From: Fidelibacterota bacterium
GTDB lineage: Bacteria; Fidelibacterota; JAANXI01
NCBI GenBank assembly: GCA_021734025.1
Contig: JAIPJS010000017.1
Coordinates: 6,165-70,164, forward strand
Length of the DNA: 64,000 bases
Reading direction: 5' to 3'
Shown here in pieces: positions 17,371 to 56,925 of this stretch (position 1 is its first letter; every line of letters begins with the position of its first letter). A program made the position numbers and the translations under genes. The notes beneath the pieces are model-generated. The model did no database searches, had not been told where the DNA came from, and saw nothing but the letters and a program-made list of their open reading frames with translations.

Positions 17371-17428
17371 TGCAGTTGTTGGAGGGGAATGGGGAACACA
17401 AACACTATAACACTGTCGTAATGTGATC

Positions 17429-17465
17429 CATATCAACTTGATATGTTCTATATCAATTGGATATG
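17429..17465 (+). promoter_or_regulatory. paired inverted-repeat sites (CATATCAA-N-TTGATATG and ATATC-N5-GATAT)
   Basis: Perfect 8-bp-arm palindrome at 17429-17445 and related site at 17449-17463, about 150-180 bp upstream of the DUF4097 gene; third CATATCAATTG copy at 17546. Confidence 0.35.
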
Positions 17466-17610
17466 AAAATCGCCACATTTTAGAATTTTTTTGATATATA
17501 TAAGTGGTTGAAATATAGCGATTTACTTATTAAAAAAATAGAATGGCATATCAATTGTAATACTCTATGCAGCAACAGAGAATTTTTTATCTTTTATACA
17601 AAGGGGAAAG

Positions 17611-18630
17611 ATGATGAATACAACACAAAAATTTTTCATTACAGTTGGGGCAGGTATCGCGCTAATGCTGGTGATAATGACGACCCAGGCATGCGCGGAC
17701 GTCAGACAGACAGTGGATAAGCAGTTTTCGGTGGACGCTGGCGGAACGCTCATTATCGATAGCGACCGGGGCTCCATTGAGATAAAAACAGTGGAAGAAA
17801 ATGAAGTGAAGGTCTCGGTTATCTACGAAGCGGATGTAATGAGTGAGCAAAAGGCCGAATCGATTTTTGAAGATTTCGTGGTGGACTTTTCGCAAAAGGG
17901 GAATAATGTAATTATCTCAGGCAAAGTGGATAAAGATCTGTTAGGAATATTTGATGGGAATAATCGATTGCGGATAAAGTATAAGGTGACCGTTCCGGAA
18001 CGATTTAACGCCGAACTGGCCACCGCCGGAGGCAGCATTATCGTTGGTGATCTTCACGGGAAATTGCAGGCGAAGACGGCTGGCGGCAGCCTGGATTTTG
18101 GAAATATCACGGGGAAAGTAGACGGAAAAACCGCCGGCGGGAGTATTAAAATGCAAAGCGCAGGCGATGATGTGGACCTCAAAACGGCTGGGGGCAGCAT
18201 CACAGTCGGACCAGTCAATGGAGACGCTGAAGCCATAACCTCCGGAGGGTCGGTTCGGATTGGTGAGGTGTCGGGTACGTTGGTGGCGCATACGTCCGGT
18301 GGCAGTATTTCCATCGATGGTGTTGGCGGTTCGATCGATGCAAAAGCATCCGGTGGATCGATTCGGGCTTCGGTGACGGAACAGCCTAAAGACGATTGCC
18401 AGCTGACAACGTCCGGAGGTAGCATTTCGGTCAGTCTGCCGGAAAATATCGGTCTGAATATTAAGGCCAGGACCTACGGTGGAAAAGTCAGTACCGACCT
18501 GCCTATTACAGTGCGCGGTGAAATCTCCAAGTCCCATATTGAGGGCACTCTGAACGGTGGTGGGCCTGCGATGATACTAGAAACCTCAGGCGGGAATATC
18601 TCAATTACAAAGAGCAAAGAACTGCTCTGA
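17611..18630 (+). CDS. DUF4097-like secreted beta-strand repeat protein (putative adhesin fold)
   Basis: Signal peptide; many tandem repeats of the type TAGGSI.. / TSGGSI.. roughly every 19-20 residues. Confidence 0.75.
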   Translation: MMNTTQKFFITVGAGIALMLVIMTTQACADVRQTVDKQFSVDAGGTLIIDSDRGSIEIKTVEENEVKVSVIYEADVMSEQKAESIFEDFVVDFSQKGNNVIISGKVDKDLLGIFDGNNRLRIKYKVTVPERFNAELATAGGSIIVGDLHGKLQAKTAGGSLDFGNITGKVDGKTAGGSIKMQSAGDDVDLKTAGGSITVGPVNGDAEAITSGGSVRIGEVSGTLVAHTSGGSISIDGVGGSIDAKASGGSIRASVTEQPKDDCQLTTSGGSISVSLPENIGLNIKARTYGGKVSTDLPITVRGEISKSHIEGTLNGGGPAMILETSGGNISITKSKELL

Positions 18631-18667
18631 TTTTCAGTCTCCAGGTTCTGGGAGGTATTCATTAAAT

Positions 18668-18698
18668 GATGCCCCGGCGCGCCGGGGCATTTTTTTTG
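18668..18698 (+). terminator. rho-independent terminator
   Basis: GC-rich perfect hairpin ATGCCCCGGCGCGCCGGGGCAT followed by a run of 8 T, 38 bp after the DUF4097 stop. Confidence 0.85.
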
Positions 18699-18766
18699 GG
18701 CTCCAGGTCTTCAACTATGGCTCTGTATTTACCTGCCAATCTGCGGACGTGTCACGAAGTGGGTTA

Positions 18767-18783
18767 ATAGAATATTATTCTAT
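18767..18783 (+). promoter_or_regulatory. palindromic operator ATAGAATATTATTCTAT (same family as the tetR operators)
   Basis: Perfect 17-bp palindrome, upstream of the DUF1761 gene. Confidence 0.45.
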
Positions 18784-19340: not shown

Positions 19341-19458
19341 GCATCGCATTATTGTTGATCTCAATCGCCGCTGTTATCTCCGGATGGCAGCGGTGTTTTT
19401 ATATGGGCGAAGAAATTTTGCCAATATCATTGGAGGAAATTCTATTTTATCCCTATAA

Positions 19459-19543: not shown

Positions 19544-20206
19544 GTGGCAGGATCAAAAAAAATAGGACGACGCAAGCAACCGGACGAACGGAAAAAGGAA
19601 ATTATCGATGCGGCAAGAGATCTGTTCGCATCCCAGGGATACGACAACACTACCATGCAGCAGGTCGTGGAGAAGGCGGGCACGTCCATCGGGAATTGCT
19701 ACTTTTACTTTTCCAATAAAAAGGAATTGTACCAGGGAGTCGTAGAGTCCGTTAACGAAGAGATCTCCGGAGTTGTCGACACTGCAATTCGAGAAATGAA
19801 TTCACCGTATGAGAAACTCGCTGCTGCCGTGTACTACGGGGCGAGGACCGTGCTGGAACTTTCGGAATCGGCCGGTGCCATCCTTACTGGAACGGATCAC
19901 CCGGAGATTCGCCGAAATATTCTGAACCATTACACCCGTCGAATCTATCGGTTCCTCAAACGGAATCCTGTTATCACCGGAGACATAAATCTGGAGTTGG
20001 CCTCAGCCGCATGGCAGGGTGCGATATTCAACTTGATTGAACGACAGACGGCCGGGCAGTTCGACGGCGATGCGCAAACGGTCGCCCGATTCCTGGTGCG
20101 GTGGAACCTCCGCGCCCTCAACGCCCCGGATGCCGAAATCAACAGCGCGCTGGAGACGGTTGAGAGGCATTACCGGGAGGAATACGGGAGCGGGGATGAG
20201 GTATAG
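19544..20206 (+). CDS. TetR/AcrR family transcriptional regulator
   Basis: N-terminal TetR HTH (..KEIIDAARDLFASQGYDNTTMQQVVEKAGTSIGNCYFYFSNKKELY..); GTG start. Confidence 0.9.
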   Translation: MAGSKKIGRRKQPDERKKEIIDAARDLFASQGYDNTTMQQVVEKAGTSIGNCYFYFSNKKELYQGVVESVNEEISGVVDTAIREMNSPYEKLAAAVYYGARTVLELSESAGAILTGTDHPEIRRNILNHYTRRIYRFLKRNPVITGDINLELASAAWQGAIFNLIERQTAGQFDGDAQTVARFLVRWNLRALNAPDAEINSALETVERHYREEYGSGDEV

Positions 20207-20244
20207 GGTATAGGGAAAAAGGGAGAAAGGAAAAAGGAGAAGGG
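20206..20244 (+). repeat. G-tract module (GGGTATAGGGTATAGGG..) immediately after stop codon; four GGG tracts
   Basis: GGG at 20206, 20213, 20221, 20242; begins within the TetR stop codon; start of a purine-rich spacer. Confidence 0.6.
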
Positions 20245-20482
20245 AGAACGAAAAAAGGAAAAAAGCCGCGAAGGGGCGACAGATGAATAGCCCCGGGTTT
20301 TAACCCGGGGATTGTGTGAATCCCAAAATTCAAAACACTGAAGATGTGAAAGAAATACCTTATTGAAGAATGAAGAATGAAAATTAAAGAAGTGGAAAAA
20401 CTAAAGGAAACTGGAATTATGAGACAGGAAACCGAAAACCAGCAATCCAGAACTGGGGACACAGCATGCTTGACCGTTTTAA

Positions 20483-20550
20483 CGATAACACCATAACACA
20501 ATTACACAGTTTTAACTTAAACACTTGAACACCTGAACACACTAACACTG
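20483..20550 (+). repeat. tandem octamer NNRAACAC module upstream of start codon
   Basis: GATAACAC CATAACAC .. TTAAACAC TTGAACAC CTGAACAC ACTAACAC, ending 17 nt before the ATG at 20568. Confidence 0.6.
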
Positions 20551-20567
20551 TACAAAGGAGAATACAC

Positions 20568-21008
20568 ATGCAAGAACTCTACACCGAAATAGAGATCAAC
20601 GCCACCCCGGAGGAGGTTTGGGACATCCTGATGGATTTTTCGAACTATCCGGAATGGAATCCGTTTGTCACCAGCATCAACGGGGAGCAGGCCGTTGGCG
20701 GGAAGCTGACGGTAGAACTAACTCAGCCGGATAGCAAGCCGATGACCATGAAGCCGACTGTCAGGAATATTGAGCAAAACAGAGAGTTCCGCTGGCTGGG
20801 ACATCTCGGCATCCCGCGGATCTTCGACGGGGAGCACATCTTTGAACTCGAGCAACTCGATGAAAACAGGGTACGCTTTGTCCAGCGGGAAAAATTTAGG
20901 GGAATTCTTGTCCCGTTCCTGAAGAAGATGCTTGAGACGAGAACGAACGAAGGGTTTCAACTGATGAATCAAGCGCTGAAAAAACGAGCGGAAGCTGGGA
21001 CTGCCTGA
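20568..21008 (+). CDS. SRPBCC (START/Bet v1-like, polyketide cyclase-like) domain protein
   Basis: 146 aa; N-terminal ..ATPEEVWDILMDFSNYPEWNPFV.. typical of SRPBCC ligand-binding fold. Confidence 0.75.
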   Translation: MQELYTEIEINATPEEVWDILMDFSNYPEWNPFVTSINGEQAVGGKLTVELTQPDSKPMTMKPTVRNIEQNREFRWLGHLGIPRIFDGEHIFELEQLDENRVRFVQREKFRGILVPFLKKMLETRTNEGFQLMNQALKKRAEAGTA

Positions 21009-21635
21009 ATGACATAAGCCGGTGGGAATCTTGAAACGTGCAAAATAAAAAGCGTCGACTTGAATTTTTTTCCACTTTTAACGTCAAGGTTTTGATGTCC
21101 AAGTGTTCCATGCAGGCCCGGACATGCGTTTCAAGATAAAAGTGGAATTAATTGATATAGTTCCAAAACTCCAACATCACTCTTGTTTTTAAAACTATTG
21201 CTATCTTTTAATTGCCCGCTTTTTCTTGATAAAAAACGGGCAGAAAAAATCAAGGAAACTCAGAACTCGCACTCCTATAAATATACAGGCTCTTTTGCAA
21301 CATTGGATATAGTAAATATTAACTCATTCAATTTCTACTGGGGTGCTCAAACAGCTGAGTTTCCGGTAAAAAAACTAGCAATAATTTGCTGTGCAATTTA
21401 TTTTTCGCTCTTTTAATGCCCGAGTATTCCATATACGCATCAAGACAAAAGGGCGGTTACCTGCCGTGTCAACGTTGAAAACACAATCAATACGTTGTTC
21501 ACCCTACATCCAGAAGAAATCTTCGTCTGTAAAGATGGTGGCTATCTATTTGGGCGAATTTTAATAATCCCGACGTCACCCCCTCGGAAAGCTCAGCTCC
21601 GGGAAAAGCCTCCGGTGAGGATATTGCCTAAAACA

Positions 21636-21674
21636 GTCATTCCGAGCGGAACGGAGTGGAGCCGAGGAATCTCG
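21636..21674 (+). repeat. mosaic intergenic repeat R1 (GTCATTCCGAGCG..GGAATCTCG), copy A
   Basis: Near-identical to 34989-35027; related copy at 31264-31312. Confidence 0.6.
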
Positions 21675-21759
21675 CAAATGAATTTCAGGGGTAAAATTGA
21701 TGCGCCCTTTCCTCATCGCAATAATATGTTCGTCGCGGCGAATTGCGAGGCTCTTCTTT

Positions 21760-21788
21760 GGTAGCCTTTGAATTTCATTCAAAGGCGG
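21760..21788 (+). repeat. palindromic repeat R5 (GGTAGCCTTTGAATTTCATTCAAAGGCGGA)
   Basis: Perfect hairpin CCTTTGAAT-TTC-ATTCAAAGG; second copy with 2 mismatches at 39517-39546. Confidence 0.55.
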
Positions 21789-21999
21789 ATTTTACCGGAT
21801 AAAGCCGGAAAATTTGGTTGGCGACTGTGAATTAGAATGACCCTTTCAGGGTCTCGACCCCTGAAAGGGTCGGTAGCAAATAAGGAAACTCAATGCCATT
21901 CAGTCTTTGCGGCCCAGGTGATCCGTTTGTTAAGAGGGAGAACTCGAGAAATCTAGTCTGAACACATCGGGAATGAAGTGAAAAACTAAAAAACAAGAA

Positions 22000-22221
22000 G
22001 TAGAGACGTAGCATTCAGGTTGTGTGAAAACGAAAAATCAAATAAAAAGTGAATGCTGGGCACCGGTTTGTTCTTCCAGTAGAGACGTTCCATGGAACGT
22101 CTCTACAATCAACAATATCAATGGGTTACTGTATATTATTTTGCAGAGAGGATTTTCCGGAATCAAGAGAAAAAAATCTCTTGACAAAAAATTCTCACAC
22201 AGCCTCCGTGGTACGTCTCTA
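22000..22221 (+). repeat. MITE-like structured element, copy A (about 220 bp with long terminal inverted repeats and internal hairpins)
   Basis: Ends TAGAGACGTAGCATTCAGGTTGTGTGAAAA / TTCTCACACAGCCTCCGTGGTACGTCTCTA are inverted repeats; internal perfect hairpin 22079-22106; homologous to 34393-34627. Confidence 0.55.
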
Positions 22222-22237
22222 GTCTACCATTAACTTT

Positions 22238-31229: not shown

Positions 31230-31263
31230 GATAGGGAATGGGGCAATTATGTAGTTCAGCTGA

Positions 31264-31312
31264 GTCATCATCCCGAGCGGAGGTTCTTCAGAACCGAAGC
31301 CGAGGGATCTCG
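31264..31312 (+). repeat. mosaic repeat R1-related copy
   Basis: GTCATCATCCCGAGCGG..CCGAGGGATCTCG related to 21636-21674 and 34989-35027. Confidence 0.45.
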
Positions 31313-31342
31313 TCAATTACACTGGGTGGTTTAAATTTCCGG

Positions 31343-31405
31343 CAAAGTAACACTTACCTCAAAGAGATCCCTGTGGGACAGAGGGCAAGACCTGGAAGGG
31401 TCGAT
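31343..31405 (+). repeat. repeat R3 copy 1 (..GTAACACTTACCTCAAAGAGATCCCTGTGGGACAG..)
   Basis: About 60-nt element repeated at 31567-31630 and in reverse orientation around 35128-35190. Confidence 0.6.
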
Positions 31406-31434
31406 AAAATTGGGAGATGAAAAACCAGGTTCAA

Positions 31435-31500
31435 CCTGTCATTTCGACCGAAGTGAACCTTTGGTTTTTAAAAGGTGAACGAAGCGGAAAAATCTCGTGA
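31435..31500 (+). repeat. repeat R2 (66 nt), copy 1
   Basis: CCTGTCATTTCGACCGAAGTGAACCTTTGGTTTTTAAAAGGTGAACGAAGCGGAAAAATCTCGTGA; second copy at 34651-34716 with 3 mismatches. Confidence 0.75.
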
Positions 31501-31566
31501 AAATCCAATAGGAATGGAAAAATAATTCAAATATTCCGGGATGACTTGCACTTTTTTTCTTGAGTG

Positions 31567-31630
31567 CAAAGTAACACTTACCTCAAAGAGACCCCTGTGG
31601 GACAGGGGTTAAGACCCTGGAAGGATCGGT
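31567..31630 (+). repeat. repeat R3 copy 2, ending 20 nt before the 31650 start
   Basis: Contains perfect hairpin ACCCCTGTGGGACAGGGGT. Confidence 0.6.
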
Positions 31631-31649
31631 TATACAAAGAAAGTGAAAA

Positions 31650-34334: not shown

Positions 34335-34392
34335 CGTGGAAAAAACGGATGACCACGGATTAATAGATTTGGTTAAACTAGATCAAGATGTA

Positions 34393-34627
34393 ACGACGTA
34401 ACATGCAGGGTGTGTGAAAATACGCAAGGGAACAATTGTGAGTAATCATCACATATTCCTTCTGGTAGAGACGTTTCTTGCCTGTCCCGAGATGTCGGGG
34501 GAAACGTCGCTACATACAATAGTAACAATGGCTTATCGAAGATTTTTATCGAGTGGGATTTCACTACGCTCAGAGGAAAAAATTCCTTGACAATGCATTC
34601 TCACACTGCCTCCATGCTATGTCTCTA
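34393..34627 (+). repeat. MITE-like structured element, copy B
   Basis: Homologous to 22000-22221 with shared terminal blocks and internal hairpins; compensatory changes in one stem (AGAGA/TCTCT versus AGGAA/TTCCT). Confidence 0.55.
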
Positions 34628-34650
34628 CTGCTTCCACTCATCTAATATTA

Positions 34651-34716
34651 CCTGTCATTTCGACCGAAGTGAGCCTTTGGTTTTTAAAAGGTGAACGAAG
34701 CGGAGAAATCTCGTGA
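34651..34716 (+). repeat. repeat R2, copy 2
   Basis: 66-nt near-identical copy of 31435-31500. Confidence 0.75.
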
Positions 34717-34988
34717 GTTAGACCGGAGATTCCGCTTCAACAGAACAACCCTTCATTTCCGGCTACACGATTTGTTGTCCCTTCCACACTCGGGGACTCT
34801 AATGATGGTGAATGGAGTCTCAAGAATGTGAGACGGAAAATAATTCAAATAGCCCGGAGTGCAGTGATATTGGCGGAATCCCTGGCGGTGAAAATGCCGA
34901 TTAAATTACGAGTTTCCTTAATCCTTGGCTTCCTCCGATAAAACGGTTTTCGCCAGAAATTAGAAAATATTAAAAGCAAAAAGTATAA

Positions 34989-35100
34989 GTCATTCCGAGC
35001 GAAACGAAGTGGAGTCGAGGAATCTCGTAAAGCCAACCTCTTGAGAGACAACCACGAGATCCTTCGACTCCCCCGACAAGTCGGGGTCGCTCAGGATGAC
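34989..35100 (+). repeat. 112-bp imperfect palindrome (R1 full element)
   Basis: 5' arm GTCATTCCGAGCGAAACGAAGTGGAGTCGAGGAATCTCG pairs with 3' arm CGAGATCCTTCGACTCC..TCGCTCAGGATGAC; internal hairpin CCCCGACAAGTCGGGG. Confidence 0.65.
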
Positions 35101-35202
35101 TGGTATTGTTTTCGACTGTATTCTTATGATCCTTTCAGGGCCTCGAGCACTGTCCCACAGGGATCTCTTTGAGGAAAGGGTCTGATAATACACGAGGAGA
35201 AT

Positions 35203-35238
35203 AACCGTCGGTGAGCCCTCTCAGGGTCACCGACGGTT
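35203..35238 (-). terminator. rho-independent terminator candidate for the M3 peptidase gene
   Basis: Perfect 11-bp-stem hairpin ACCGTCGGTGA..TCACCGACGGT 12 bp downstream of the minus-strand stop, followed on the minus strand by a short U-rich stretch. Confidence 0.5.
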
Positions 35239-35249
35239 ATCTTCGAAGT

Positions 35250-37499: not shown

Positions 37500-37526
37500 A
37501 AGCCAGTGTTACGGTGTTATTGTGTT
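37500..37526 (-). repeat. octamer NNRAACAC module, minus-strand orientation (upstream of the M3 peptidase gene)
   Basis: Reverse complement reads CTAAAACAC AATAACAC CGTAACAC. Confidence 0.5.
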
Positions 37527-37684
37527 TTAGTTGGAGAAGTTCTTAATCGTAATCCTACTCTTAATCTTACTCCGTTTGTTTGTAGTTAGTTGTTGGTAAA
37601 ACTCCGCTTGTGTATCTGTTTTCACCTTTCTATGTGGATAAAAACTTTCTCGAGTTGTTTTTGGACGTCACAGAAAATTGATTG

Positions 37685-37758
37685 GGAGTAAGATTAGGAT
37701 TAAGAGTAACCAGCACTGTTGTTAACTTGAACACCCGAACACATTAACACTTGAAAAC
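37685..37758 (+). repeat. hexamer (TAAGAT/TAGGAT) module followed by octamer NNRAACAC module, + orientation
   Basis: GTAAGATTAGGATTAAGAG then TTGAACAC CCGAACAC ATTAACAC, about 80 bp upstream of the 37836 start; mirror-image copy 37545-37575 on the other side of the divergent region. Confidence 0.55.
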
Positions 37759-37835
37759 TTACTATTTCGCTTTCCCCCACACCTTTTTGTATAATACGCA
37801 TTCTGATATTCCGAACAAACACAGGACTAAGACGA

Positions 37836-39233: not shown

Positions 39234-39235
39234 TA

Positions 39236-39312
39236 GGGTACAAGGGTATAGAGGTATAGGGGGCAGTTGGGTTTCTTAATCCTAATCTTAATCCTAATCC
39301 TAATCTTACTCA
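39236..39312 (+). repeat. G-tract module (GGGTACAAGGGTATAGAGGTATAGGGGG..GGG) followed by hexamer (AATCCT/AATCTT)n module
   Basis: Starts 3 nt after the YfcC stop; four G tracts at 39236, 39244, 39259, 39269; then CTTAATCCTAATCTTAATCCTAATCCTAATCTTACTC. Confidence 0.6.
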
Positions 39313-39726
39313 TACTCCAAATCAAATTTATCTAATTATGAAATGCAGAAGGGATAAAGCGTTTCGTGGTGCGTTTACTGTTGGATATCCCGGTGCATGG
39401 GAGCGGACGAAAACTCGGATAGCCGGAGAGGAAGCGTCGCGTCCCGACAGAGACTCCTCCCGGAGGCATCCCCGGCGAAGTTTATCACCGCGCAATAAGA
39501 CTATGATGTTAATAATGGTAGCCTTTGAATCTCATTCAATGGCGGAGAACTATCATCAACATCTGCAAAAATTTGCTATTTCAGTTCAATATTCGGCATC
39601 TGTTGTAAGCAATTCACCGGCAACGACGCTTAACGCGATCGTCGCCGGAAGGATCCGTTTCACACTTCGATATTCGAAATTGGGCATTGGATATTCGATA
39701 TTCATTCTTTCCCGTCCAACCACACC

Positions 39727-39756
39727 TTGACTTTGGCCGGGTGAATCCCTTAATTA
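39727..39756 (+). promoter_or_regulatory. sigma70-like promoter candidate TTGACT-N17/18-TAATTA
   Basis: -35 TTGACT 39727-39732 and -10-like TTAATT/TAATTA around 39750-39756, about 25 bp before the 39781 ATG. Confidence 0.35.
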
Positions 39757-44879: not shown

Positions 44880-45030
44880 CGGCGGGTACAAGGTAATGAA
44901 AACATGTTTTTCAATTAGAAAATGTAAATCACCGAGATTGAAAAACATGATTAAGATTATGAGTAGGATATAGAATAAGAAACGCGAGACATTAATACGA
45001 TAACACATTAACACGAGCGAACTGGTTTTT

Positions 45031-48794: not shown

Positions 48795-48797
48795 AAA

Positions 48798-48817
48798 GGG
48801 GTATAAGGGTATAAGGG
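48798..48817 (+). repeat. G-tract module GGGGTATAAGGGTATAAGGG after stop codon
   Basis: Starts 4 nt after the stop at 48794. Confidence 0.55.
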
Positions 48818-49060
48818 ATTAGTATTACGTACTGCGTATTAGTGTCCAGGTGTTCCACACAAGCGCGTATGAAACCGGAAAAGGGGACAGATTGAATATC
48901 CAACCGACGATTATCCAATGCTCTGCTGCGGCGGAACGGCGAACCAATCCCGAGGACCCCACCCGGTTCTGACCCCTTCTAAAGAATTCAATATCATGAA
49001 TGATGAGTGAAAAAGTGAAGAACGCGGAGAGCGGAAACTGAAGAATCTCGAGCATCTAAA

Positions 49061-49106
49061 CAATAACACGGGAATACCCGAACACTATAACACTATTTTC
49101 AACACT
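49061..49106 (+). repeat. octamer NNRAACAC module upstream of cmk
   Basis: AATAACAC .. CCGAACAC TATAACAC .. TTCAACAC, about 50 bp upstream of the 49157 start. Confidence 0.5.
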
Positions 49107-49156
49107 TGAAATTCGGTTTGCAATCGCAAGGGGAAACTTCTAAATTCCAAAGCTAA

Positions 49157-49852
49157 ATGAGAACAAAACTAACTATAGCAATTGATGGTCCGTCAGGATC
49201 AGGGAAAAGTACCACTGCCCGGCGCAGTGCCGAACGGCTGGATTATACCTATGTCGACACCGGCGCCATGTACCGGGCCATTACGCTACACATTCTCAAC
49301 AACAACGTCCCGATTAAGGATAAATCGCAGGTAGTGAAAGCGGCGGCTGAGGTGCAGATTCAGTTCACCCGGACCGGTGACCGGCTTGAAGTGTTGCTGG
49401 ACGGGAAGAACGTCACCGATGCTATTCGCGAGCCACGGATTGATAAGTCGGTGGGACTTGTAAGTGAGAACCCCGGGGTGCGTGCCATACTGGTGAATTT
49501 ACAGCGATCGCTCGCAAAGGATGGCGGGGTGGTCATGGAAGGACGTGATATCGGTACCCGGGTACTCCCCGATGCCGATCTCAAGTTTTTCATGGATGCC
49601 GACCTCGACATCAGGGCGGAACGCCGGAAATCTCAGTTGGCCGATCAGGGGGTAGATGTAGACAAAGAAACCGTTAAACAAGAACTGGTCAATCGGGATA
49701 CTCGCGATTCCGAGCGCGATGAATCGCCGCTTCGTGCCGCGGAGCACGCTATTCTGATTGATACAACAAACCTTTCCATTGAAGACCAGGTGGACTTAAT
49801 CGTCCAGCGAGCGAGGGAGAAGGAAGCACAGGAGGTTACTCTTCATGAGTGA
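49157..49852 (+). CDS. cmk: cytidylate kinase
   Basis: P-loop IAIDGPSGSGKST and CMP-kinase specific regions. Confidence 0.9.
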   Translation: MRTKLTIAIDGPSGSGKSTTARRSAERLDYTYVDTGAMYRAITLHILNNNVPIKDKSQVVKAAAEVQIQFTRTGDRLEVLLDGKNVTDAIREPRIDKSVGLVSENPGVRAILVNLQRSLAKDGGVVMEGRDIGTRVLPDADLKFFMDADLDIRAERRKSQLADQGVDVDKETVKQELVNRDTRDSERDESPLRAAEHAILIDTTNLSIEDQVDLIVQRAREKEAQEVTLHE

Positions 49853-52088
49853 AGAAGAAAAACAGCAACAAACCCAAGATGAGGAAACACAAGTCGAAGA
49901 AGTAGAAGAAACACAGGAGAAGGCACCTGAAAGTGATGAACAGACGGAGGCAGCAGAAGAACAGGAAACCGCTGCTCCGGAATCCGATGGCAACGGACAA
50001 ACCACTGACTTTGGCATCCTCGATCTTGACGACATTCAGACCATTCCGAAAGACGAGTTAGTCGAAAAGCGTGAAGAGACCGACGAAGAGGAAGAGCAAC
50101 TTCGCTCGCTGCTGTCAGACACGTTAAAGGATATCGGCGAAAACCAGATCACTGAAGGCCGCGTGCTCTCCATTAATGAGCGCGAAGTCGTGGTGGATAT
50201 CGGGTTTAAGGCAGAAGGGCTGATCCCCATTGAAGAATTTGAAGGTGACGATCTGCCAGAGCCGGGAGAAGAAGTCGACGTCTATATCGATTTTCTGGAA
50301 GACGAAGACGGCCAGCTGATTCTCTCCAAGCGCAAAGCTGACTTTATGAAGCAGTGGGAGAAGGTCGCCAATGCCGAAGCCAACGACGAGGAAGTCGAGG
50401 GAACTATTGTCCGCCGCGTGAAGGGTGGTATGATGGTGGACGTCAGCGGCGTCAACTGCTTCCTGCCGGGGTCACAGATCGATGTCCGGCCGATTCAGGA
50501 TTTCGACGCCTACGTTGGGCAGACCTTCAATTTCAAGATCGTCAAAATCAACGAAATGCGGAAAAACGTGGTGCTCTCCCGGAAGGTCATTCTGGAAGAG
50601 AATCTCAAAGAGCGCCGGAAAGAACTCCTCAAGGATATCGAGGTCGGTCAGGTGCTCCAGGGCCGCGTCAAAAATATCACCGACTTCGGCGTGTTCGTTG
50701 ATCTCGGTGGCATAGACGGCTTGATCCATATTACGGATCTCTCCTGGGGCCGTGTGAATCATCCGTCGGAGGTGGCCAATCTGGAAGAAGTTATCGACGT
50801 GATGGTCATCGATTATGACGAAGAGAAACAGCGTGTTTCTCTCGGACTCAAGCAATTGCAGCCGCATCCCTGGGATAGCGTGGAGGAGAAATACCCCGTG
50901 GGTTCCGTTGTCACCGGCAAGGTGGTCAGCATCACCAATTACGGCGCCTTTGTCGAGCTGGAGAAGGGCATCGAAGGGTTGGTGCACATCTCGGAGATTT
51001 CATGGGTGAAACACATCAAGCATCCTTCGGAAGTCTTTTCACTCGGTGAGGAAATCGATGTAAAAGTGCTGGATATCCAGCCGGAAGAGCAGAAAATTTC
51101 TCTGGGCGTCAAACAGTTGGAACCGGATCCCTGGGAAGAGATCGAAAAGAAATTCGAACCGGGATCCATCGTTACCGGTATCGTCCGGAACCTCACCCAG
51201 TTTGGTGCATTTGTTGAACTGGAAGAGGGTATTGATGGGCTGATTCATGTGTCCGACATGTCCTGGACCCGGAAGATCCGGCATCCCAAGGAAATTCTCT
51301 CCAAGAGTGATGAAGTCCAGGTCAAGGTCCTGGATGTCTCCAAGGACGAGCGGAAAATTTCCCTTGGCCTGAAACAGGTGGAAGAGGATCCGTGGCCCAA
51401 GATCAAGGAGAAGTTCAAGATCGGTACAACAACCCAGGGCAAGGTGGAGCGTATCCTGAACAAGGGGATTATCGTGAATCTGGAACTGGATGTGGAAGGT
51501 ATTGTCCCGTTGTCTCATATTCCGAAAAAGGATCGGAAGCAGATGACGCAGAACATCCAGGTCGGTGACGAAATGGAACTGAAGGTTATCGACATCAATG
51601 AGGATGATAAAAAAATCGTACTCTCCCGGGATGAATTCATCCAGGACAAGGACCAGCACGAGGTCGATATGTTTATGAAGACTCAGGGCGGCCAGGCGGC
51701 TGAAAAGATCGAAATTCCGGAAGAAGTCCGGAAAACGATTGAAGAAGGCGAAAGCCAGGCTGAAGAAGAGCCCGAGAGTACCGAAGCCGAGGAAGAAGTG
51801 ACCGAGAAGGCCACTGCCAACGAAGTCGACGAAGGGACAGACGAAGAGGAGGACGCAGCTCAACCAGAATCTGCAGAGGATGACGAAGAAGCAGTGAAGG
51901 CAGAAGAAGCCGAAGAGGCCGACGAAGAGGAAGCGACAGAGGCAAAATCGGAGGCCGACGAAGCAAACGACAAATCGGAGGAGAAAGAAGAAGACGACGT
52001 GGAGGAGGAACCAGAGGACGACGGGGATGCCGAGGATGACGTTGATGAAGATGAGGATGAAGATGAGGATGAGGAGTCGGAGAAATAA
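49845..52088 (+). CDS. rpsA: 30S ribosomal protein S1 with acidic N- and C-terminal extensions
   Basis: Six S1-type OB-fold repeats; Glu/Asp-rich N-terminal segment (about 60 aa) and C-terminal tail (about 100 aa); start overlaps cmk end. Confidence 0.9.
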   Translation: MSEEEKQQQTQDEETQVEEVEETQEKAPESDEQTEAAEEQETAAPESDGNGQTTDFGILDLDDIQTIPKDELVEKREETDEEEEQLRSLLSDTLKDIGENQITEGRVLSINEREVVVDIGFKAEGLIPIEEFEGDDLPEPGEEVDVYIDFLEDEDGQLILSKRKADFMKQWEKVANAEANDEEVEGTIVRRVKGGMMVDVSGVNCFLPGSQIDVRPIQDFDAYVGQTFNFKIVKINEMRKNVVLSRKVILEENLKERRKELLKDIEVGQVLQGRVKNITDFGVFVDLGGIDGLIHITDLSWGRVNHPSEVANLEEVIDVMVIDYDEEKQRVSLGLKQLQPHPWDSVEEKYPVGSVVTGKVVSITNYGAFVELEKGIEGLVHISEISWVKHIKHPSEVFSLGEEIDVKVLDIQPEEQKISLGVKQLEPDPWEEIEKKFEPGSIVTGIVRNLTQFGAFVELEEGIDGLIHVSDMSWTRKIRHPKEILSKSDEVQVKVLDVSKDERKISLGLKQVEEDPWPKIKEKFKIGTTTQGKVERILNKGIIVNLELDVEGIVPLSHIPKKDRKQMTQNIQVGDEMELKVIDINEDDKKIVLSRDEFIQDKDQHEVDMFMKTQGGQAAEKIEIPEEVRKTIEEGESQAEEEPESTEAEEEVTEKATANEVDEGTDEEEDAAQPESAEDDEEAVKAEEAEEADEEEATEAKSEADEANDKSEEKEEDDVEEEPEDDGDAEDDVDEDEDEDEDEESEK

Positions 52089-52143: not shown

Positions 52144-52341
52144 ATGACCGAGCCAGATCGAGAATTTCCAGGCTGCCAACAATGCGGAACCGGAATACTG
52201 GTCCCGCTGTCGGATTACGGACGTGAAGGGGCCAGCATCCTGTATAAAGCGTGGGTCTGTATTAATCCCGAATGCGGATTCAATCTCCGTATTGACAACG
52301 GCGACGTCAGCCGGGGAGAACCTATCAGGCCAAATTCCTGA
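52144..52341 (+). CDS. small zinc-ribbon protein (65 aa)
   Basis: AGGAGG RBS; two C-x2-C pairs (CQQCG .. CINPEC) spaced about 30 residues apart. Confidence 0.5.
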   Translation: MTEPDREFPGCQQCGTGILVPLSDYGREGASILYKAWVCINPECGFNLRIDNGDVSRGEPIRPNS

Positions 52342-52366
52342 CGGCTGTATAAGATAACCACAGATT

Positions 52367-54576: not shown

Positions 54577-56612
54577 TGTTTTCACTGCATACTGTTACTC
54601 TATGGATTACTGTTCCTCTCATTTTGGGAGGACTGTTGTTCTGGTGGTGGTCAACCCGTTACCTATCGAGTGTTACAAATCCCACTGTTGCCGGAATAAT
54701 CCGGGGGATTCGTCTGTTTGCATTGATTGGGATTATACTGTTAGTTGCGGATTTTCGAATTAATTGGGTCACGCATCAAAATATTCCACCAACAATTGCC
54801 GTCTTCGCCGACGATTCGCAAAGTTTGACAGATTTTGAAGGACAGCTCTCCGATTCATTGGAAAAAATTCTGTCTGAAGATGCCGTAGAGGTCCAACTAT
54901 TCCGTTTTTCGGGAGATGTTCAGAAGACGGGTTCACCCAAGGCTTTGGATTTTTCCGGAACCGAAACCAATTTAAGTGCTCCGTTAGAATACCTGAAACG
55001 AGAAGCCGACAACCGGAATTACCAGGCGGCGATTTTACTCAGCGACGGTATCCATAACAGCGGACCAGAACCAACATCAGTTCTGGAGGATTGGCGGCTT
55101 CCGGTGTATACGATGTTTATCGGAGATTCGACGGTTGCGCCGGATATCAGCCTCCAACAATTTACGCTTCCCAAATACGCATATGCCGGGGATTCCGTTA
55201 CCGCCCAATTGAGGCTGGATGTTCAGTCACTCCGAAACGAAGAATCTGTCTCTCTCGTTCTCAGAGACAACAACCAGGAGTTGGCGAGCAGAACCCTGTC
55301 ACTGACGCCAGGGGATTACCAGCGGTCTGATGAGGTGGCACTGCAGTTCGAAGAGCCTGGTGAATATACTGTCTCAGCGGCTGTTGGTACGGTTTCAAAC
55401 GAGACGGATGTGGCCAATAATAGTTCCCGGGAACGCATTACAGTGAAGCCGTCCCGGTACCGGGTGCTGGTGTTAAGCGCAGCGCCGTCAACGGATACGC
55501 GCTTTCTGCTCAACGCTATCGATAATCTTGAGCGGTTCGAGTCCATTCCGATCTTTACATCACTCTCGGTTCCTGATTCGATGCCGGAAGCCCCCGATAT
55601 TATTTATTTGTTGGGCAATTCGCCGGAGTTTCAGTCGTATCTGAGCGAGTGGCAAAACGACCACACGATTACACAGGTTGGTGCGGGCGGGAGAATGTAT
55701 CTTCCCGGCGATTCCGGAGAAGAGAATGTGAACAACTGGCAGGAGCACCAGGTCACGCTCCAGCGATCCTCGGAAAGTCCTCTGCAGTCCCTTCCCTGGG
55801 GACAATCGATATGGGAGCAACTGCCTCCGGTCTGGATCCCGGCGGCATCAGAAATCGGGAAAATACGCGGGACCACGATTTTAAAATCTGTCGATGGGAA
55901 TAATTCTGTAATAACCATGGATGTGGATGGCACCGGACGAACTATTCGTGTCTATGCAAGAGAACTCTGGCGGTGGTCGTTTGCGAACCGGGATGCTGAA
56001 GAAAGTATCGAAGTACTCCCTGAGAAGCCGTATTCCAGGGTGATGGAACAGGTTTTTTACTGGTTGCTGCAGGATACGGAGTTTCAGCGATTGCAGGTAG
56101 AGTTGGACACCGATTCAAGAAACGTGATCCGGGCGACGGCTCAAGTATATTCCCGGGCACTGGAGGTTGCGGAAGTCGCGAGGGTATGGGGTGAAGTGAT
56201 CGATTCGACAGGACAAACCATCCGGCGGCAGCCGTTTACCCGGGATGGAAATACTTTTACTTTTCAGTCGAAGGTGACTTCGCCGGGGGAGTATCGGCTC
56301 AGGGCTATTGCTCATCTGACAGACGATACGCTGCGTTCCGTAGCCGGACCGGTTCGGATGGAGGATGTAGAGTATGAGTTATTGAATCGCCAGGGGCGCC
56401 CCGGTTTGCTGAAACAGATTAGTCAGCGATCTGGCGGCAAGCTCTTGGAAAATATTGCGGAGTTACCGGCGGAGGAGTTCGCGGGCCGCCCGTACACACA
56501 GCAATCAGAGCACCATTCCTTTGCATTGCGCAGGGCGTTTTGGGTGTGGATTTTACTCGTCATTCTGCTGGGCATAGACTGGTGGATCCGCCGGCGGAGC
56601 GGGATTCTGTGA
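54576..56612 (+). CDS. hypothetical membrane protein with N-terminal double TM segment and C-terminal TM anchor (about 678 aa)
   Basis: ATG overlaps tsaD stop (TGATG); two N-terminal hydrophobic helices, large soluble middle, C-terminal helix then RRRSGIL; supplied ORF extends further upstream in the same frame. Confidence 0.55.
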   Translation: MFSLHTVTLWITVPLILGGLLFWWWSTRYLSSVTNPTVAGIIRGIRLFALIGIILLVADFRINWVTHQNIPPTIAVFADDSQSLTDFEGQLSDSLEKILSEDAVEVQLFRFSGDVQKTGSPKALDFSGTETNLSAPLEYLKREADNRNYQAAILLSDGIHNSGPEPTSVLEDWRLPVYTMFIGDSTVAPDISLQQFTLPKYAYAGDSVTAQLRLDVQSLRNEESVSLVLRDNNQELASRTLSLTPGDYQRSDEVALQFEEPGEYTVSAAVGTVSNETDVANNSSRERITVKPSRYRVLVLSAAPSTDTRFLLNAIDNLERFESIPIFTSLSVPDSMPEAPDIIYLLGNSPEFQSYLSEWQNDHTITQVGAGGRMYLPGDSGEENVNNWQEHQVTLQRSSESPLQSLPWGQSIWEQLPPVWIPAASEIGKIRGTTILKSVDGNNSVITMDVDGTGRTIRVYARELWRWSFANRDAEESIEVLPEKPYSRVMEQVFYWLLQDTEFQRLQVELDTDSRNVIRATAQVYSRALEVAEVARVWGEVIDSTGQTIRRQPFTRDGNTFTFQSKVTSPGEYRLRAIAHLTDDTLRSVAGPVRMEDVEYELLNRQGRPGLLKQISQRSGGKLLENIAELPAEEFAGRPYTQQSEHHSFALRRAFWVWILLVILLGIDWWIRRRSGIL

Positions 56613-56617
56613 AAAAA

Positions 56618-56657
56618 GGGTATAAAGGTATACGGGTATAGGGTATAAGTAATAGGG
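56618..56657 (+). repeat. G-tract module (GGGTATAAAGGTATACGGGTATAGGGTATAAGTAATAGGG) after stop codon
   Basis: Four GGG tracts at 56618, 56634, 56641, 56655, starting 6 nt after the stop. Confidence 0.6.
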
Positions 56658-56817
56658 AATAAGGTAGTCGCCCGCTTCAAGTCCGCGAGGCGGATTTAAT
56701 CAGGGGAGACGCCGGAGAAAAGCAGAAAGGAACAGATTGAATATCCATTTCGCCGCGGTAGAGAAAAAGTGAAAAAACCAAACGAGAAACGGAAGGCACT
56801 CGATTCATGACGTTTTT

Positions 56818-56925
56818 AACTATAACACCACAAAAAGGAAACACTATAACGCCCTCATCCGCCAGGGCTTCGGAGAGATGGTGTTGTTACTCGAACACTG
56901 GAACACCTGAACACTATACCACTTG
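56818..56925 (+). repeat. octamer NNRAACAC module upstream of the UDP-glucose dehydrogenase gene
   Basis: CTATAACAC .. GAAACAC TATAAC .. TCGAACAC TGGAACAC CTGAACAC TATACCAC. Confidence 0.5.

Follow-up and report, generated by a model that had tools for sequence, protein, structure and literature searches.

Octamer Arrays in Intergenic Spacers

The stretch of DNA analysed here (64,000 nucleotides, the window) comes from the metagenome-assembled genome of an uncultured, salt-loving, free-living sediment bacterium of the Marinimicrobia/Neomarinimicrobiota. Several of its intergenic spacers carry short tandem arrays of an octamer with the consensus N-N-(T/G/A)-A-A-C-A-C, also written NND+AACAC. 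Positions 1 and 2 of the unit are uninformative, position 3 is T, G or A (C in 1 of 29 units) and positions 4-8 are AACAC, in a logo that is partly circular because the arrays were found via AACAC. Arrays comprise 2-4 units; the SRPBCC locus, with two adjoining arrays, has up to approximately eight.

The leftmost array, GGGGAACAC AAACAC TATAACAC with spacings of 6 and 8 (17395-17413, + strand), is short and lies ~198 nt upstream of the start of a DUF4097 gene at 17611; its in-register units are ACAAACAC TATAACAC (17398-17413, +). At the SRPBCC gene, an "array leader" motif, TGACCGTTTTAAC, is followed by GATAACAC CATAACAC AATTACAC (20471-20508, +; units at 20484-20508). The adjoining four-unit array, TTAAACAC TTGAACAC CTGAACAC ACTAACAC (20517-20548, +), ends 19 nt 5' of the ATG at 20568, with an AAGGAG Shine-Dalgarno sequence in between. 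The divergent M3 peptidase/yfcC region contains a three-unit minus-strand array, TAAAACAC AATAACAC CGTAACAC (37506-37529), pointing at the M3 peptidase gene (start 37343), and a plus-strand array upstream of the yfcC promoter, TTGAACAC CCGAACAC ATTAACAC plus a degenerate TTGAAAAC (37727-37758). Two units, GATAACAC ATTAACAC (44999-45014, +), stand 16 nt upstream of scpA, which begins with a GTG codon at 45031, and AATAACAC GGGAATAC CCGAACAC TATAACAC TATTTTCAACAC (49062-49105, +) lies upstream of the cmk promoter. Farther right, a leader motif, TGACGTTTTTAAC, introduces TATAACAC CACAAAAA GGAAACAC (56808-56844, +; array part 56821-56844), and TCGAACAC TGGAACAC CTGAACAC TATACCAC (56891-56922, +) ends 38 bp upstream of the ugd -35 element. 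The same contig carries one extra array in sense orientation at L208 5016-5039, 5 kb to the left of the window. The genes downstream of the arrays are unrelated in function, with no common theme, and no Rfam match reached the gathering score across the whole window.

The arrays lie where an earlier, sequence-only reading of this DNA had put them, and their register is far from random. Same-strand pairs of AACAC cores at exactly 8-bp spacing number 13 in the window, whereas 200 Markov shuffles gave 0.055 on average and never more than 1; pairs recur at 16 and 24 bp, and other spacings are nearly empty. Every array in the window is intergenic, and the motif is not equally frequent in coding DNA: on the + strand of the window, AACAC occurs at 3.77/kb in intergenic sequence vs. 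0.55/kb in coding sequence. The array-to-start distances of 17-115 bp given earlier require correction; measured from the last unit to the start codon, they are ~19, 77-85, 51 and 115-135 nt.

Orientation and Occurrence in Other Phyla

All nine arrays of the window and the flanking one read toward their downstream gene (10/10), which bears out the orientation coupling proposed earlier, including the M3 peptidase/yfcC region, where each array points toward its own gene. Because 54 of the 58 mapped genes lie on the + strand, the orientation match in the window is carried by one informative minus-strand array (37506-37529). The AACAC core and its register, with variable spacers, also occur in Saprospiraceae, Chitinophagales, Cytophagales, Chthonomonadaceae, Calditrichaceae, Rhodothermales, Balneolaceae, Ardenticatenaceae and another Neomarinimicrobiota genome, a patchy distribution across phyla. 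Many of them are in sense orientation, with 0-25 nt between array and start codon. Among arrays at most 30 nt from a start, ~25 are sense vs. 5 antisense, a count whose bias may be inflated by the crude gene calls behind it. A test independent of gene calls gives the same direction: the arrays of other genomes typically come in pairs, arranged as outward-pointing GTGTT...AACAC rather than in the reverse order by 26:1. Other lineages also have arrays directly beside stop codons, and these run in the opposite sense. Unrelated repeat families of the same genomes likewise place their G-poor strand toward the gene (39:4), which suggests a composition-based directional constraint rather than a single AACAC-specific reader.

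Promoters Downstream of the Arrays

Three arrays are followed by conserved promoters of the sigma-70 type. The cmk promoter, TTGCAA-17 nt-TAAATT (49118-49146, +), lies ~10 nt before the ATG; four lineages conserve its hexamers and 17-nt spacing but not the sequence of the spacer, and the cmk mRNA appears to be near-leaderless. The ugd promoter, TTGACT-17 nt-TACTAT (56961-56989, +), is conserved in L341, L342 and L343, and the form TTGACT-17-TAnnAT is found in four lineages. At yfcC, the -10 region TTGTATAATA (37787-37796, +) corresponds to the motif TTTGTATACTATA in L330 and L334-L339 at a similar distance from the array; this -10 motif, TTTGTATAMT, is conserved in three lineages, which also keep the 39-41 nt between array and -10 element. 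The end of the array is ~12 bp from the -35 position at cmk, 38 bp at ugd (~55 bp in L341) and 8-16 bp at yfcC.

Because these promoters sit 3' of the arrays, the cmk, ugd and yfcC arrays are read as promoter-upstream DNA and not as 5' UTR, and an RNA-level role in their own mRNAs is therefore unlikely. The sequence-only reading had suggested a promoter-proximal or 5' UTR element, for example a CA-rich translational element. Its promoter-proximal part stands for these three genes, and its 5' UTR and translational part does not. The SRPBCC and scpA arrays, 16-19 nt from their start codons, are probably transcribed, the former because there is no room for a promoter 3' of it; a 5' UTR or translational role is possible for these two arrays only. 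A 5' UTR translational enhancer, which would lie between the transcription start and the start codon of its gene, was rejected for the cmk, ugd and yfcC arrays.

More broadly, the arrays might act as RNA in transcripts heading toward the gene, a reading that we regard as distinctly unlikely. It could take the form of an unstructured A/C-rich leader or ribosome standby site, of a docking platform for RNA-binding proteins, the role suggested for TAACTGA repeats, or of a C>G tract that loads Rho on read-through or antisense transcripts and insulates the gene. The strand specificity of the arrays, the two window arrays next to start codons and the many start-proximal sense arrays of other phyla all speak for it. 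In AACAC arrays and unrelated families alike, it is the G-poor strand that faces the gene, whether at its start or at its stop, which fits a reading of RNA from gene-entering polymerases. As RNA, moreover, the window arrays are unstructured, without any gain in folding over shuffled sequence (z-scores -0.7 to +0.7). Three arrays upstream of conserved promoters, one of them before an apparently near-leaderless gene, nevertheless argue against it. Paired arrays carry their C-rich arm second, where it would be sequestered in a hairpin at once; paired arrays of Calditrichaceae do form hairpins (z-scores -3.9 to -8.2). Rho utilisation (rut) sites are C-rich, G-poor, unstructured RNA tracts of ~60-80 nt, rich in YC dinucleotides. 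The arrays are G-poor and unstructured, but at 16-32 nt each (~65 nt for the adjoining pair) they are short for Rho loading, and their units are poor in the YC dinucleotides that Rho prefers, AACAC itself containing none, so a rut site was rejected. An intrinsic terminator or REP-like hairpin also failed, since the window arrays are unstructured and have no palindromic partner in this genome.

Conservation and Loss Among Relatives

Comparison with related genomes indicates that the arrays are evolutionarily labile, a well-supported conclusion: they expand and contract rapidly and are gained and lost among close relatives. The closest relative keeps arrays at the orthologous sites of yfcC, scpA and ugd and lacks those at cmk and M3; further relatives have the same promoters without arrays. 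At yfcC, an orthologous four-unit array is found in L330 and L337, and the M3 array is missing at the orthologous site of L330. At scpA, three units precede the GAGCNAACTGTTTT motif in L330, a motif also present in the window, and L125 has a 55-bp spacer without an array. The ugd array at 56891-56922 aligns in register (MAFFT) with a four-unit array in L341 and is missing in L342 and L343; the cmk array is missing in L123, L124, L125 and L343. The promoter is retained in all these cases of cmk and ugd, and the arrays are therefore dispensable. Spacers are longer in the window organism than in relatives (362 vs. 100-216 bp at cmk; 151 vs. 55 bp at scpA). Unit number apparently differs even among contigs encoding an identical YfcC protein, and contigs break inside the array. 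Adjacent identical units occur as TATAACAC TATAACAC in L341 and as TTG-TTG and TCG-TCG in L334.

Where arrays are shared, the AACAC cores stay intact between species and the 3-nt spacers drift. In the orthologous yfcC, scpA and ugd arrays (relative at ~86-88% protein identity), 47/50 core positions are identical vs. 13/30 spacer positions (Fisher p = 7e-7), a contrast to which the alignment itself contributes, since its register follows the cores. The non-promoter spacer DNA around these arrays is barely alignable.

These patterns bear on the main rival to a dedicated function, namely that the arrays are tolerated microsatellites: slippage-prone repeats, like cyanobacterial STRRs, in dispensable spacers, of which selection filters only orientation and composition. 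The sense strand lacks ATG and GTG, often contains TGA or TAA, and is G-poor and unstructured; the antisense (GTGTTCAN)n would put stop-free GTG starts before genes. We consider this explanation somewhat unlikely. Presence and absence among close relatives, the longer spacers of the window organism, the apparently variable unit number and the adjacent identical units, suggestive of recent duplication, are as it predicts, as are the many other 6-9-bp repeat families in the same spacers, the unrelated downstream genes and the lack of RNA structure. Neutral decay, however, should strike cores and spacers equally, yet the differences, within arrays as well as from one species to another, fall in the spacers and leave the cores intact. 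The 5-6-bp core, with free spacers, also turns up in several phyla, and the position of the yfcC array relative to its promoter is kept in three lineages. Moreover, arrays upstream of promoters lie outside the mRNA, where a translation-based filter would be inoperative.

The Surrounding Repeat Mosaic

The AACAC arrays belong to a larger mosaic, in which they take the position nearest the gene. The mosaic consists of short tandem repeats with strand asymmetry and of small dispersed motifs, and it fills the spacer from the stop codon of one gene to the promoter of the next; this description is well supported. Tandem repeats of GGGTATAA directly follow a stop codon (48799-48817, +), and repeats of this type at 20200-20263, 39234-39262 and 56616-56666 likewise form a C-poor, stop-proximal part of the mosaic. 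A G-free (TAATCC)n hexamer array (39274-39323, +) belongs to it as well. In the M3 peptidase/yfcC spacer, a hexamer array of the TCTTAATCC type (37541-37573, +) and a C-free array of the GGATTAAGA type (37680-37705, +) make up a degenerate inverted repeat, the former as its left arm; the latter lies immediately 5' of the yfcC AACAC array. This composite, a GATTA-type array followed by an AACAC array, is found at three sites, including yfcC and ~44947-45014. A dispersed 16-mer, ACAGATTGAATATCCA (48887-48902, +), has an identical copy at 56732-56747, and the 21-mer leader TGACNGTTTTAACNATAACAC occurs at 20471 and 56808 with one mismatch (chance expectation 0). Modules common to unrelated spacers keep their order and orientation, relatives differ in whether they have whole mosaics, and many further 6-9-bp repeat families occupy the same spacers and genomes.

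Such sharing raises the question of whether the arrays are part of a dispersed mosaic element or are insertion footprints, carried or generated by an intergenic element that moves or recombines, much like the BIME/REP mosaics of Escherichia coli. In one variant, an AACAC-recognising enzyme would leave reiterated 8-bp target duplications with errors concentrated at unit junctions. The leader 21-mer, the 16-mer and the composite, all common to unrelated spacers, would follow from this origin, as would the gain or loss of entire mosaics, the patchy distribution across phyla and the clustering of variation at unit junctions. In L069, GTGTT x5 and AACAC x4 arrays even bracket a 0.5-kb small gene. 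We judge this origin more doubtful still than action in RNA. Paired arrays lack a terminal inverted repeat with a conserved interior, no transposase is linked to the arrays, and most matches in viral contigs come from a single conserved coding repeat or are perfect simple repeats. A MITE- or BIME-like mobile element was rejected because the spacers of paired arrays are heterogeneous, target-site duplications are absent and only short modules are common. Gene-ward orientation, furthermore, is not explained by a mosaic alone.

A Possible Directional Array of DNA Sites

It is well supported that the arrays constitute a lineage-restricted family of phased octamer repeats. With low confidence, we favor a reading in which they act on DNA, as directional arrays of binding sites for a putative protein. 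A sequence-specific protein may recognize the reiterated 5-bp AACAC cores. The 8-bp register would let successive protomers spiral around the helix with cooperative binding, a mode familiar from ribbon-helix-helix proteins on operators with 7-8-bp repeats. From its site next to the core promoter, on the upstream side and in matching orientation, such an array might serve as a general accessory or insulating element of the promoter-upstream region, neither a gene-specific switch nor a translational element.

This DNA-level reading draws on the 8/16/24-bp register, the informative cores with free spacers and their recurrence across phyla, as well as on the kept cores of orthologues, the fixed distance between yfcC array and promoter, the uniform orientation and the 26:1 pairing rule. 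Against it stand the array-less promoters of relatives, the microsatellite-like variation in unit number and the probably transcribed scpA and SRPBCC arrays. The distance from array to -35 element also varies (~8-16, 12, 38 and ~55 bp), which makes the arrays a poor fit to a classical activator. The regulator-binding array suggested by the sequence-only reading is plausible and unproven: it is favored by cores that stay intact, spacers that are free and a register of strictly 8 bp, and array-less promoters, variable unit number and -35 distance, and unrelated genes weigh against a gene-specific regulator.

Comparison With Known Repeat Systems

Mechanistic analogues are the operators of ribbon-helix-helix proteins, such as the tandem 8-bp met-boxes of MetJ and the 7-bp heptads of the omega repressor. 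These operators consist of two to ten contiguous 7-8-bp units beside promoters, in direct or inverted orientation, each bound cooperatively by one dimer. The AACAC arrays resemble them, as analogues only, in their contiguous units, promoter-adjacent position and unit number that varies between promoters. An operator array would have a conserved core at a fixed promoter position throughout its regulon; here the core is conserved and the position is kept at yfcC orthologues, and the -35 distance ranges over ~8-55 bp between genes. MetJ and omega operators overlap the promoters of a defined regulon and have known repressors, whereas AACAC arrays lie upstream of the -35 element of unrelated genes and are dispensable in relatives.

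Other intergenic repeats share some of these features. BIME/REP enterobacterial extragenic mosaics are built of ~35-bp palindromic units, mobilised by RAYT transposases and bound by general DNA-binding proteins. Like them, the mosaics described here combine a few short motifs in stereotyped order and orientation between genes and vary between strains; unlike them, their blocks are 6-8-bp tandem repeats without a palindromic partner in this genome. Haemophilus influenzae hmw1A and hmw2A carry 7-bp promoter-associated contingency repeats upstream, which are likewise 7-8-bp repeats of variable copy number in an upstream regulatory region. Those repeats, however, are perfect and confined to a few surface-antigen loci of host-adapted pathogens, whereas AACAC repeats are imperfect and precede housekeeping genes in a free-living sediment bacterium.

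Cyanobacterial short tandemly repeated repetitive (STRR) heptamers are abundant intergenic repeats with a 7-bp period, located near promoters and start codons. A genome can hold several STRR families, whose copy number is variable enough for strain fingerprinting. AACAC arrays differ from them in period, motif and phylum, and the units of STRRs are as a rule near-perfect copies, without the division into core and free spacer. For a heptamer-repeat region of Nostoc, a preprint describes reporter and DNA-binding assays that implicate contiguous repeats in recF and recO regulation (10.1101/2022.06.06.494920).

Together with the STRRs, the nearest published parallel is the TAACTGA family of heptamer direct repeats, known from marine Beggiatoaceae and from some Cyanobacteria and Bacteroidetes (MacGregor 2015, PMC4679880). 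These repeats too form tandem direct repeats of 2-6+ units, nearly all intergenic and "forward" toward the start codon, before functionally unrelated genes including housekeeping ones; they occur in a patchy set of phyla, relatives have shorter, repeat-free spacers, other short repeat families are intermixed, and a minority face stop codons (PMC4679880). The largest TAACTGA class ends 1 nt before the start codon (PMC4679880), whereas three arrays here lie upstream of conserved promoters. The taxa also differ, AACAC being found in Marinimicrobia, Calditrichota, Saprospiraceae, Armatimonadota and Chloroflexota. Intergenic tandem arrangement, forward orientation and a patchy distribution, in which close relatives have shorter spacers and no repeats, are thus common to the AACAC arrays and the STRR/TAACTGA kind, and the exact heptamer is replaced by an 8-bp unit with a fixed 5-bp core and three free positions. 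The AACAC arrays are an undescribed octamer relative of the TAACTGA repeats of Beggiatoa and the short tandem repeats of cyanobacteria.

Register, placement and orientation of the AACAC arrays

The AACAC arrays are runs of 8-bp units, NND followed by AACAC, in which a fixed core alternates with a free 3-nt spacer; a synthetic four-unit array would be written (TTGAACAC)4. In the window, which has a G+C content of 50%, pairs of AACAC on the same strand at a spacing of exactly 8 bp occur 13 times, whereas Markov shuffles average 0.055 and never exceed 1. Extra pairs at 16 and 24 bp enclose one degenerate unit, and almost none are found at other spacings. The arrays were found where a sequence-only reading had noted octamer modules upstream of start codons, and both their existence and their placement are borne out by these counts. 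Within the window, the arrays are 100% intergenic, and the plus-strand density of AACAC is sevenfold higher between genes than within coding sequence (3.77/kb vs 0.55/kb).

When the 29 units are set in register, positions 1-2 are uninformative, position 3 takes T, G or A, and AACAC fills positions 4-8. Since AACAC was also the means of locating the arrays, the resulting logo is in part circular; despite this circularity, it shows that they are not exact 8-mer repeats. Several resemblances were considered and rejected. Reiterated -35 boxes (TTGAAC) do not fit, as TTG falls in the variable part of the unit and AACAC in the conserved part. Stop codons in all three frames do not fit as the selected property, with TGA or TAA in only about 70% of units and some arrays covering two frames. 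Likenesses to Hfq (ARN)n sites, DnaA boxes and parS fail in register or sequence.

All nine arrays of the window, together with one in its left flank (L208 5016-5039), read toward the gene downstream. Because the genes are strand-biased, with 54 of 58 on the plus strand, coupling to the gene can be separated from coupling to the strand only at the minus-strand array at 37506-37529. The gene-matched orientation first noted from sequence thus holds for all ten arrays, the minus-strand array being the single informative case within the window. The downstream genes are functionally unrelated. They encode a DUF4097 protein; an SRPBCC/polyketide-cyclase-like protein, preceded by a TetR gene; an M3 peptidase and a YfcC/DcuC-type transporter, a divergent pair with arrays for both; ScpA; cytidylate kinase (cmk), whose gene overlaps with the beginning of the one for ribosomal protein S1; and UDP-glucose dehydrogenase (ugd), the first gene in a polysaccharide cluster.

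Position relative to promoters

Scans of four spacers for consensus promoters and terminators were equivocal alone, and promoters were accepted only if conserved in orthologous loci fetched from relatives. Upstream of cmk, TTGCAA-17 nt-TAAATT lies about 10 nt before the ATG and is common to four lineages (74-87% Cmk identity). In this region (49118-49157), which is without a Shine-Dalgarno sequence, the hexamers are kept and the 17-nt spacer varies in sequence among the four lineages, the signature of a real promoter. Its proximity to the ATG implies a near-leaderless message, and the cmk mRNA is, judging from the sequence, probably leaderless or nearly so. On the upstream side, the window array stops 12 bp short of the -35 element. 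No array occurs at the orthologous site in the compared relatives, where the spacers measure 100-216 bp, as against 362 bp in the window.

For ugd, TGTTGACTTT...TTTTCTAnnAT is kept in the window, in L341 of the closest relative (88%), and in two further loci, L342 (86%) and L343 (80%). The window array lies 38 bp upstream of the -35 element and aligns in register with a four-unit array of L341 (MAFFT). The L342 spacer is only 99 bp and holds the promoter alone, and L343 has an apparent terminator hairpin in place of the array (a GC-rich inverted repeat, by eye). For yfcC, TTTGTATAMT is kept in the window, in L330 of the closest relative, and in a third population (six contigs, L334-L339), and in all of these the arrays end 39-41 nt upstream of it.

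Given the conserved promoters at cmk, ugd and yfcC, the array is promoter-upstream DNA in all three testable cases. The sequence-only reading was therefore right to call the arrays promoter-proximal and oriented, and its alternative of a 5' UTR or translational element mostly falls away, with promoters downstream of three arrays. Its suggestion of a regulator-binding array is plausible. Two other arrays lie closer to their genes. The scpA array is 16 nt from the start codon and is kept in L330, where the GAGCNAACTGTTTT motif follows it as well, and the SRPBCC array is 19 nt from the start, with a Shine-Dalgarno sequence between. These distances leave no room for a promoter downstream of the array, so both arrays are probably transcribed.

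Gain, loss and conservation of the cores

The closest relative (Ga0180433_10000008; L123, L330 and L341) has arrays at yfcC, scpA and ugd, and none at cmk or M3. Relatives at about 74-80% protein identity, and L342 at 86%, have no arrays at orthologous sites, and 80 cmk loci (469 kb) contain zero AACAC pairs at 8-bp spacing. Between orthologous arrays, 47 of 50 core positions are identical compared with 13 of 30 spacer positions (Fisher p = 7e-7), a comparison limited by an alignment register that the cores themselves fix. Its real content is that the cores are intact in every unit of both species, with spacers and surroundings randomised.

The number of units also changes. Contigs with identical YfcC (P0007) and an identical 100 nt downstream carry different yfcC arrays: TTG-CTG-TCG-TGT in 4 units, TTG-TTG-TCG-TGT after a truncated first unit in at least 5, and TTG-TTG-TCG-TCG-TGT after a truncated first unit in at least 6. 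These alleles indicate slippage-type variation in unit number at yfcC, in sequence whose short-repeat assembly is error-prone. Five of the six independent Logan contigs L334-L339 begin inside the yfcC-upstream array, from which it follows that AACAC repeats break short-read assemblies at gene boundaries. At the window's own loci, the comparable Logan contigs (SRR12088346-48) are 100% identical to the window or to the source contig and so are uninformative on polymorphism.

These patterns bear on whether the arrays are read or simply tolerated. A tolerated microsatellite, somewhat unlikely but a serious alternative, is in keeping with the absence of arrays from close relatives, the variable unit number, the array to -35 distance that differs between genes, and the obedience of unrelated repeat families to the same orientation rule (see below); pure slippage is hard to reconcile with intact cores beside freely varying spacers. 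Those intact cores and free spacers, the strict register and the fixed distance to the yfcC promoter argue that the core is read and is not just slippage debris. Since the arrays lie upstream of conserved promoters, a DNA-level reader is the most economical single explanation for those of this genome. The reading tentatively preferred here, by analogy with ribbon-helix-helix proteins, which occupy tandem 7-8-bp operators, is of a cooperative, directional protein-binding array. A putative protein would read the AACAC cores at the DNA level, binding the array cooperatively and in one direction, and the bound array might serve the promoter-upstream region as a general accessory or insulator.

The spacer mosaic

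The long spacers of the window share an order of elements, from C-poor repeats through a 16-mer, GTGAAAAA-like repeats and a 21-mer to the AACAC units. The C-poor tandem repeats, of GGGTATAA/GGAAAAA type, begin a few bases after stop codons (20200-20263, 39234-39262, 48799-48817 and 56616-56666). With at least four GGG runs each, several of them could fold into G-quadruplexes, and a polypurine stretch of about 50 nt, in which C occurs once, spans 20214-20263. The 16-mer ACAGATTGAATATCCA occurs in perfect copies at 48887-48902 and 56732-56747, and the 21-mer 'leader' TGACNGTTTTAACNATAACAC lies at 20471-20491 and, with one mismatch, at 56808-56828, where chance would yield none. TAATCC/GGATTA hexamer arrays accompany the AACAC arrays (37541-37573, 37680-37705, about 44947-44970, and 39274-39323), and the divergent M3/yfcC spacer holds the entire composite in both orientations.

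The presence of ACAGATTGAATATCCA and TGACNGTTTTAACNATAACAC in unrelated spacers, with order and orientation kept, indicates a dispersed mosaic intergenic element. That such an element, or insertion footprints, contributed to the spread of the arrays is suggested by the modules shared between spacers; this contribution, which would not exclude the other readings, is considered quite improbable.

Distribution and paired arrays beyond the lineage

A scan with GAACACNNGAACACNNNAACAC of one genome per GTDB species gave at least 120 matches, with about 70 chance matches expected across the entire collection. Among the matches listed, arrays with conserved GAACAC and variable spacers occur many times per genome in Saprospiraceae, Chitinophagales and Cytophagales, and likewise many times per genome in Chthonomonadaceae (Armatimonadota), Calditrichaceae, Rhodothermales, Balneolaceae, Ardenticatenaceae (Chloroflexota) and a Neomarinimicrobiota genome from Red Sea brine. 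The cyanobacterial and actinomycete matches listed are mostly perfect simple repeats of the (GAACACCG)n type. A phage origin was rejected: viral contigs yielded for the most part a single conserved coding repeat, (GAACACCA)n, along with perfect simple repeats, and not arrays of the imperfect intergenic type.

In the cross-phylum genomes the arrays are typically paired, GTGTT preceding AACAC within 225 bp in 26 cases and following it in 1, a count made without gene calls. At L069 and at three of the four Calditrichaceae loci (L022, L057 and L092), the stop of the upstream gene is followed by a GTGTT array, and an AACAC array comes ahead of the next start. An unpaired AACAC array abuts a stop codon in L038, and one toward-stop array was confirmed via the Pfam domains of its flanking gene. 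Across phyla, 41 arrays point toward starts and 40 toward stops, an apparent lack of bias that is resolved because the arrays form outward-pointing pairs. Within 30 nt of a start, about 25 are sense and 5 antisense by crude gene calls, whose longest-ORF rule may inflate the bias.

Folding was applied to three short-spacer pairs (L022, L057 and L092), and each gave a long hairpin (z-scores between -3.9 and -8.2). The window arrays have no inverted partner, shuffled sequence folds as well as they do, and a hairpin or terminator role was rejected for them; an Rfam scan of the whole window gave no family match. A MITE with arrays as its ends was likewise rejected, the spacers of the 26 pairs being heterogeneous, with no target duplications seen.

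Two local arrangements deserve mention. At L069 7378-7937 (Neomarinimicrobiota, Suakin Deep), a small gene of 0.5 kb lies between GTGTT x5, directly after a stop, and AACAC x4, 15 nt ahead of the next start; it was apparently inserted between the two arms of the pair. The N-terminal sequence of its product presumably resembles a four-helix-bundle protein of the '23S rRNA intervening sequence' type. In four loci of the Chthonomonadaceae MAG CAYNFH01 (L007, L009, L059 and L072), GAACACCT arrays are flanked by CCGGAATCCGG palindromes and also by heptamer arrays (CACGACT, CAACCTT), a different mosaic with the same AACAC core.

A wider orientation rule

The cross-phylum loci (GTDB loci L003-L122) contain many further arrays with a 6-9-bp period. 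Where neighbouring arrays have opposite C-G skew, the G-rich array comes before the C-rich one 39 times and after it 4 times, again without gene calls, and pairs with neither array of the AACAC type make up 18 vs 2 of this total (p = 3e-8). Put another way, it is the G-poor strand that runs toward the flanking gene, whether at starts or at stops. The window mosaic follows the rule: GGGTATAA-type repeats come after stops, and the next gene is preceded by AACAC or TAATCC, for example in the spacers at 20207-20567, 39234-39337, 48795-49156 and 56613-57049.

The AACAC arrays may be one case of a general intergenic grammar, in which tandem arrays of unrelated motifs in repeat-rich genomes of several phyla present a G-poor, C-containing strand toward the flanking gene, a generalisation judged distinctly unlikely. 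If true, it would imply a conserved directional machinery, either terminating or insulating polymerases that enter genes or forming a directional DNA-binding system. Cores such as AACAC would then be under purifying selection, and a trans-acting factor might have spread by horizontal transfer. The rule would also be neatly explained if the arrays worked in RNA, as a leader, as a site for an RNA-binding protein, or in Rho loading on incoming transcripts; this is improbable, with three arrays lying outside the mRNAs of their own genes and a core without YC dinucleotides.

Other sequence features of the window

A separate dispersed family of hairpin repeats, GTCATTCCGAGCG...GAGGAATCTCG with the variant GTCATTTCGACCGAAGTGA...GAAAAATCTCG, is found at about 21630-21680, 31265-31310, 31435-31500, 34650-34715 and 34985-35030. 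Its members cluster in three large gene-free stretches (21009-22237, 31230-31649 and 34335-35249) and are accompanied by TCTCTTGACAAAAAATTCTCACACAGCCTCC blocks at about 22175 and 34575 and by GTAGAGACGTT inverted repeats.

Between rpsA and a YbbR-like gene lies a small conserved gene of about 65 codons (52146-52343), below the threshold of the 100-aa ORF list, with two Cys pairs, CxxC and CxxxxC (MTEPDREFPGCQQCGTG...). It is called in a Logan contig (L001 5095-5292); L342 and L343 each have a 65-aa gene called there, and L125 shows similar coding sequence. At its C terminus, ribosomal protein S1 (gene at 49845-52088; 747 aa) has a long, acidic, low-complexity tail (51884-52075), built of 9-27-bp coding repeats and also present in relatives, where lengths differ (738-772 aa). 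Downstream of yfcC (39338-39730 and 39666-39703), a 130-aa ORF is called as a gene in neither annotation of this contig. The spacer there spans 547 bp in the window and 266 bp in the closest relative, contains TAATCC and TTCGATA tandem repeats, and is probably non-coding.

Relation to known repeat families

The AACAC array is a real, statistically strong and widespread feature, and it has a published analogue. Five 14-mers taken from the arrays had no match in 8 million full texts, and a keyword search for octamer repeats returned nothing relevant; no description of the AACAC family was found. The arrays add an octamer family to those described, evidence from related genomes that in this lineage they lie upstream of core promoters and not in leaders, and a strong, gene-call-independent orientation rule common to other repeat families across phyla. 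Should a reader protein or a directional transcription-insulating role be found, a widespread class of non-coding DNA would be explained, as would assembly breaks between genes in these organisms. If neutral, the arrays still mark fast-evolving spacers usable for strain typing.

The STRRs of cyanobacteria, the earliest known gene-adjacent bacterial short tandem repeats with a 7-8-bp period, form the broader class that contains such repeats. In the literature examined, including the work of MacGregor on TAACTGA repeats (PMC4679880), a function for gene-adjacent repeats of this period is not established. In the abstract of a preprint, contiguous heptamer repeats at Nostoc recF and recO are implicated in regulation by reporter and DNA-binding assays (10.1101/2022.06.06.494920). 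The TAACTGA heptamers are the closest published case. Like the AACAC arrays, they are intergenic (almost all of them), read forward toward the start codons of unrelated downstream genes, are patchy across phyla, are lacking from relatives with shorter, repeat-free spacers, are mixed with other heptamer families, and in a minority of cases point toward stop codons. The AACAC family differs from these known repeats in its 8-bp period, its core-plus-spacer architecture, the taxa in which it occurs and its demonstrable position upstream of promoters.
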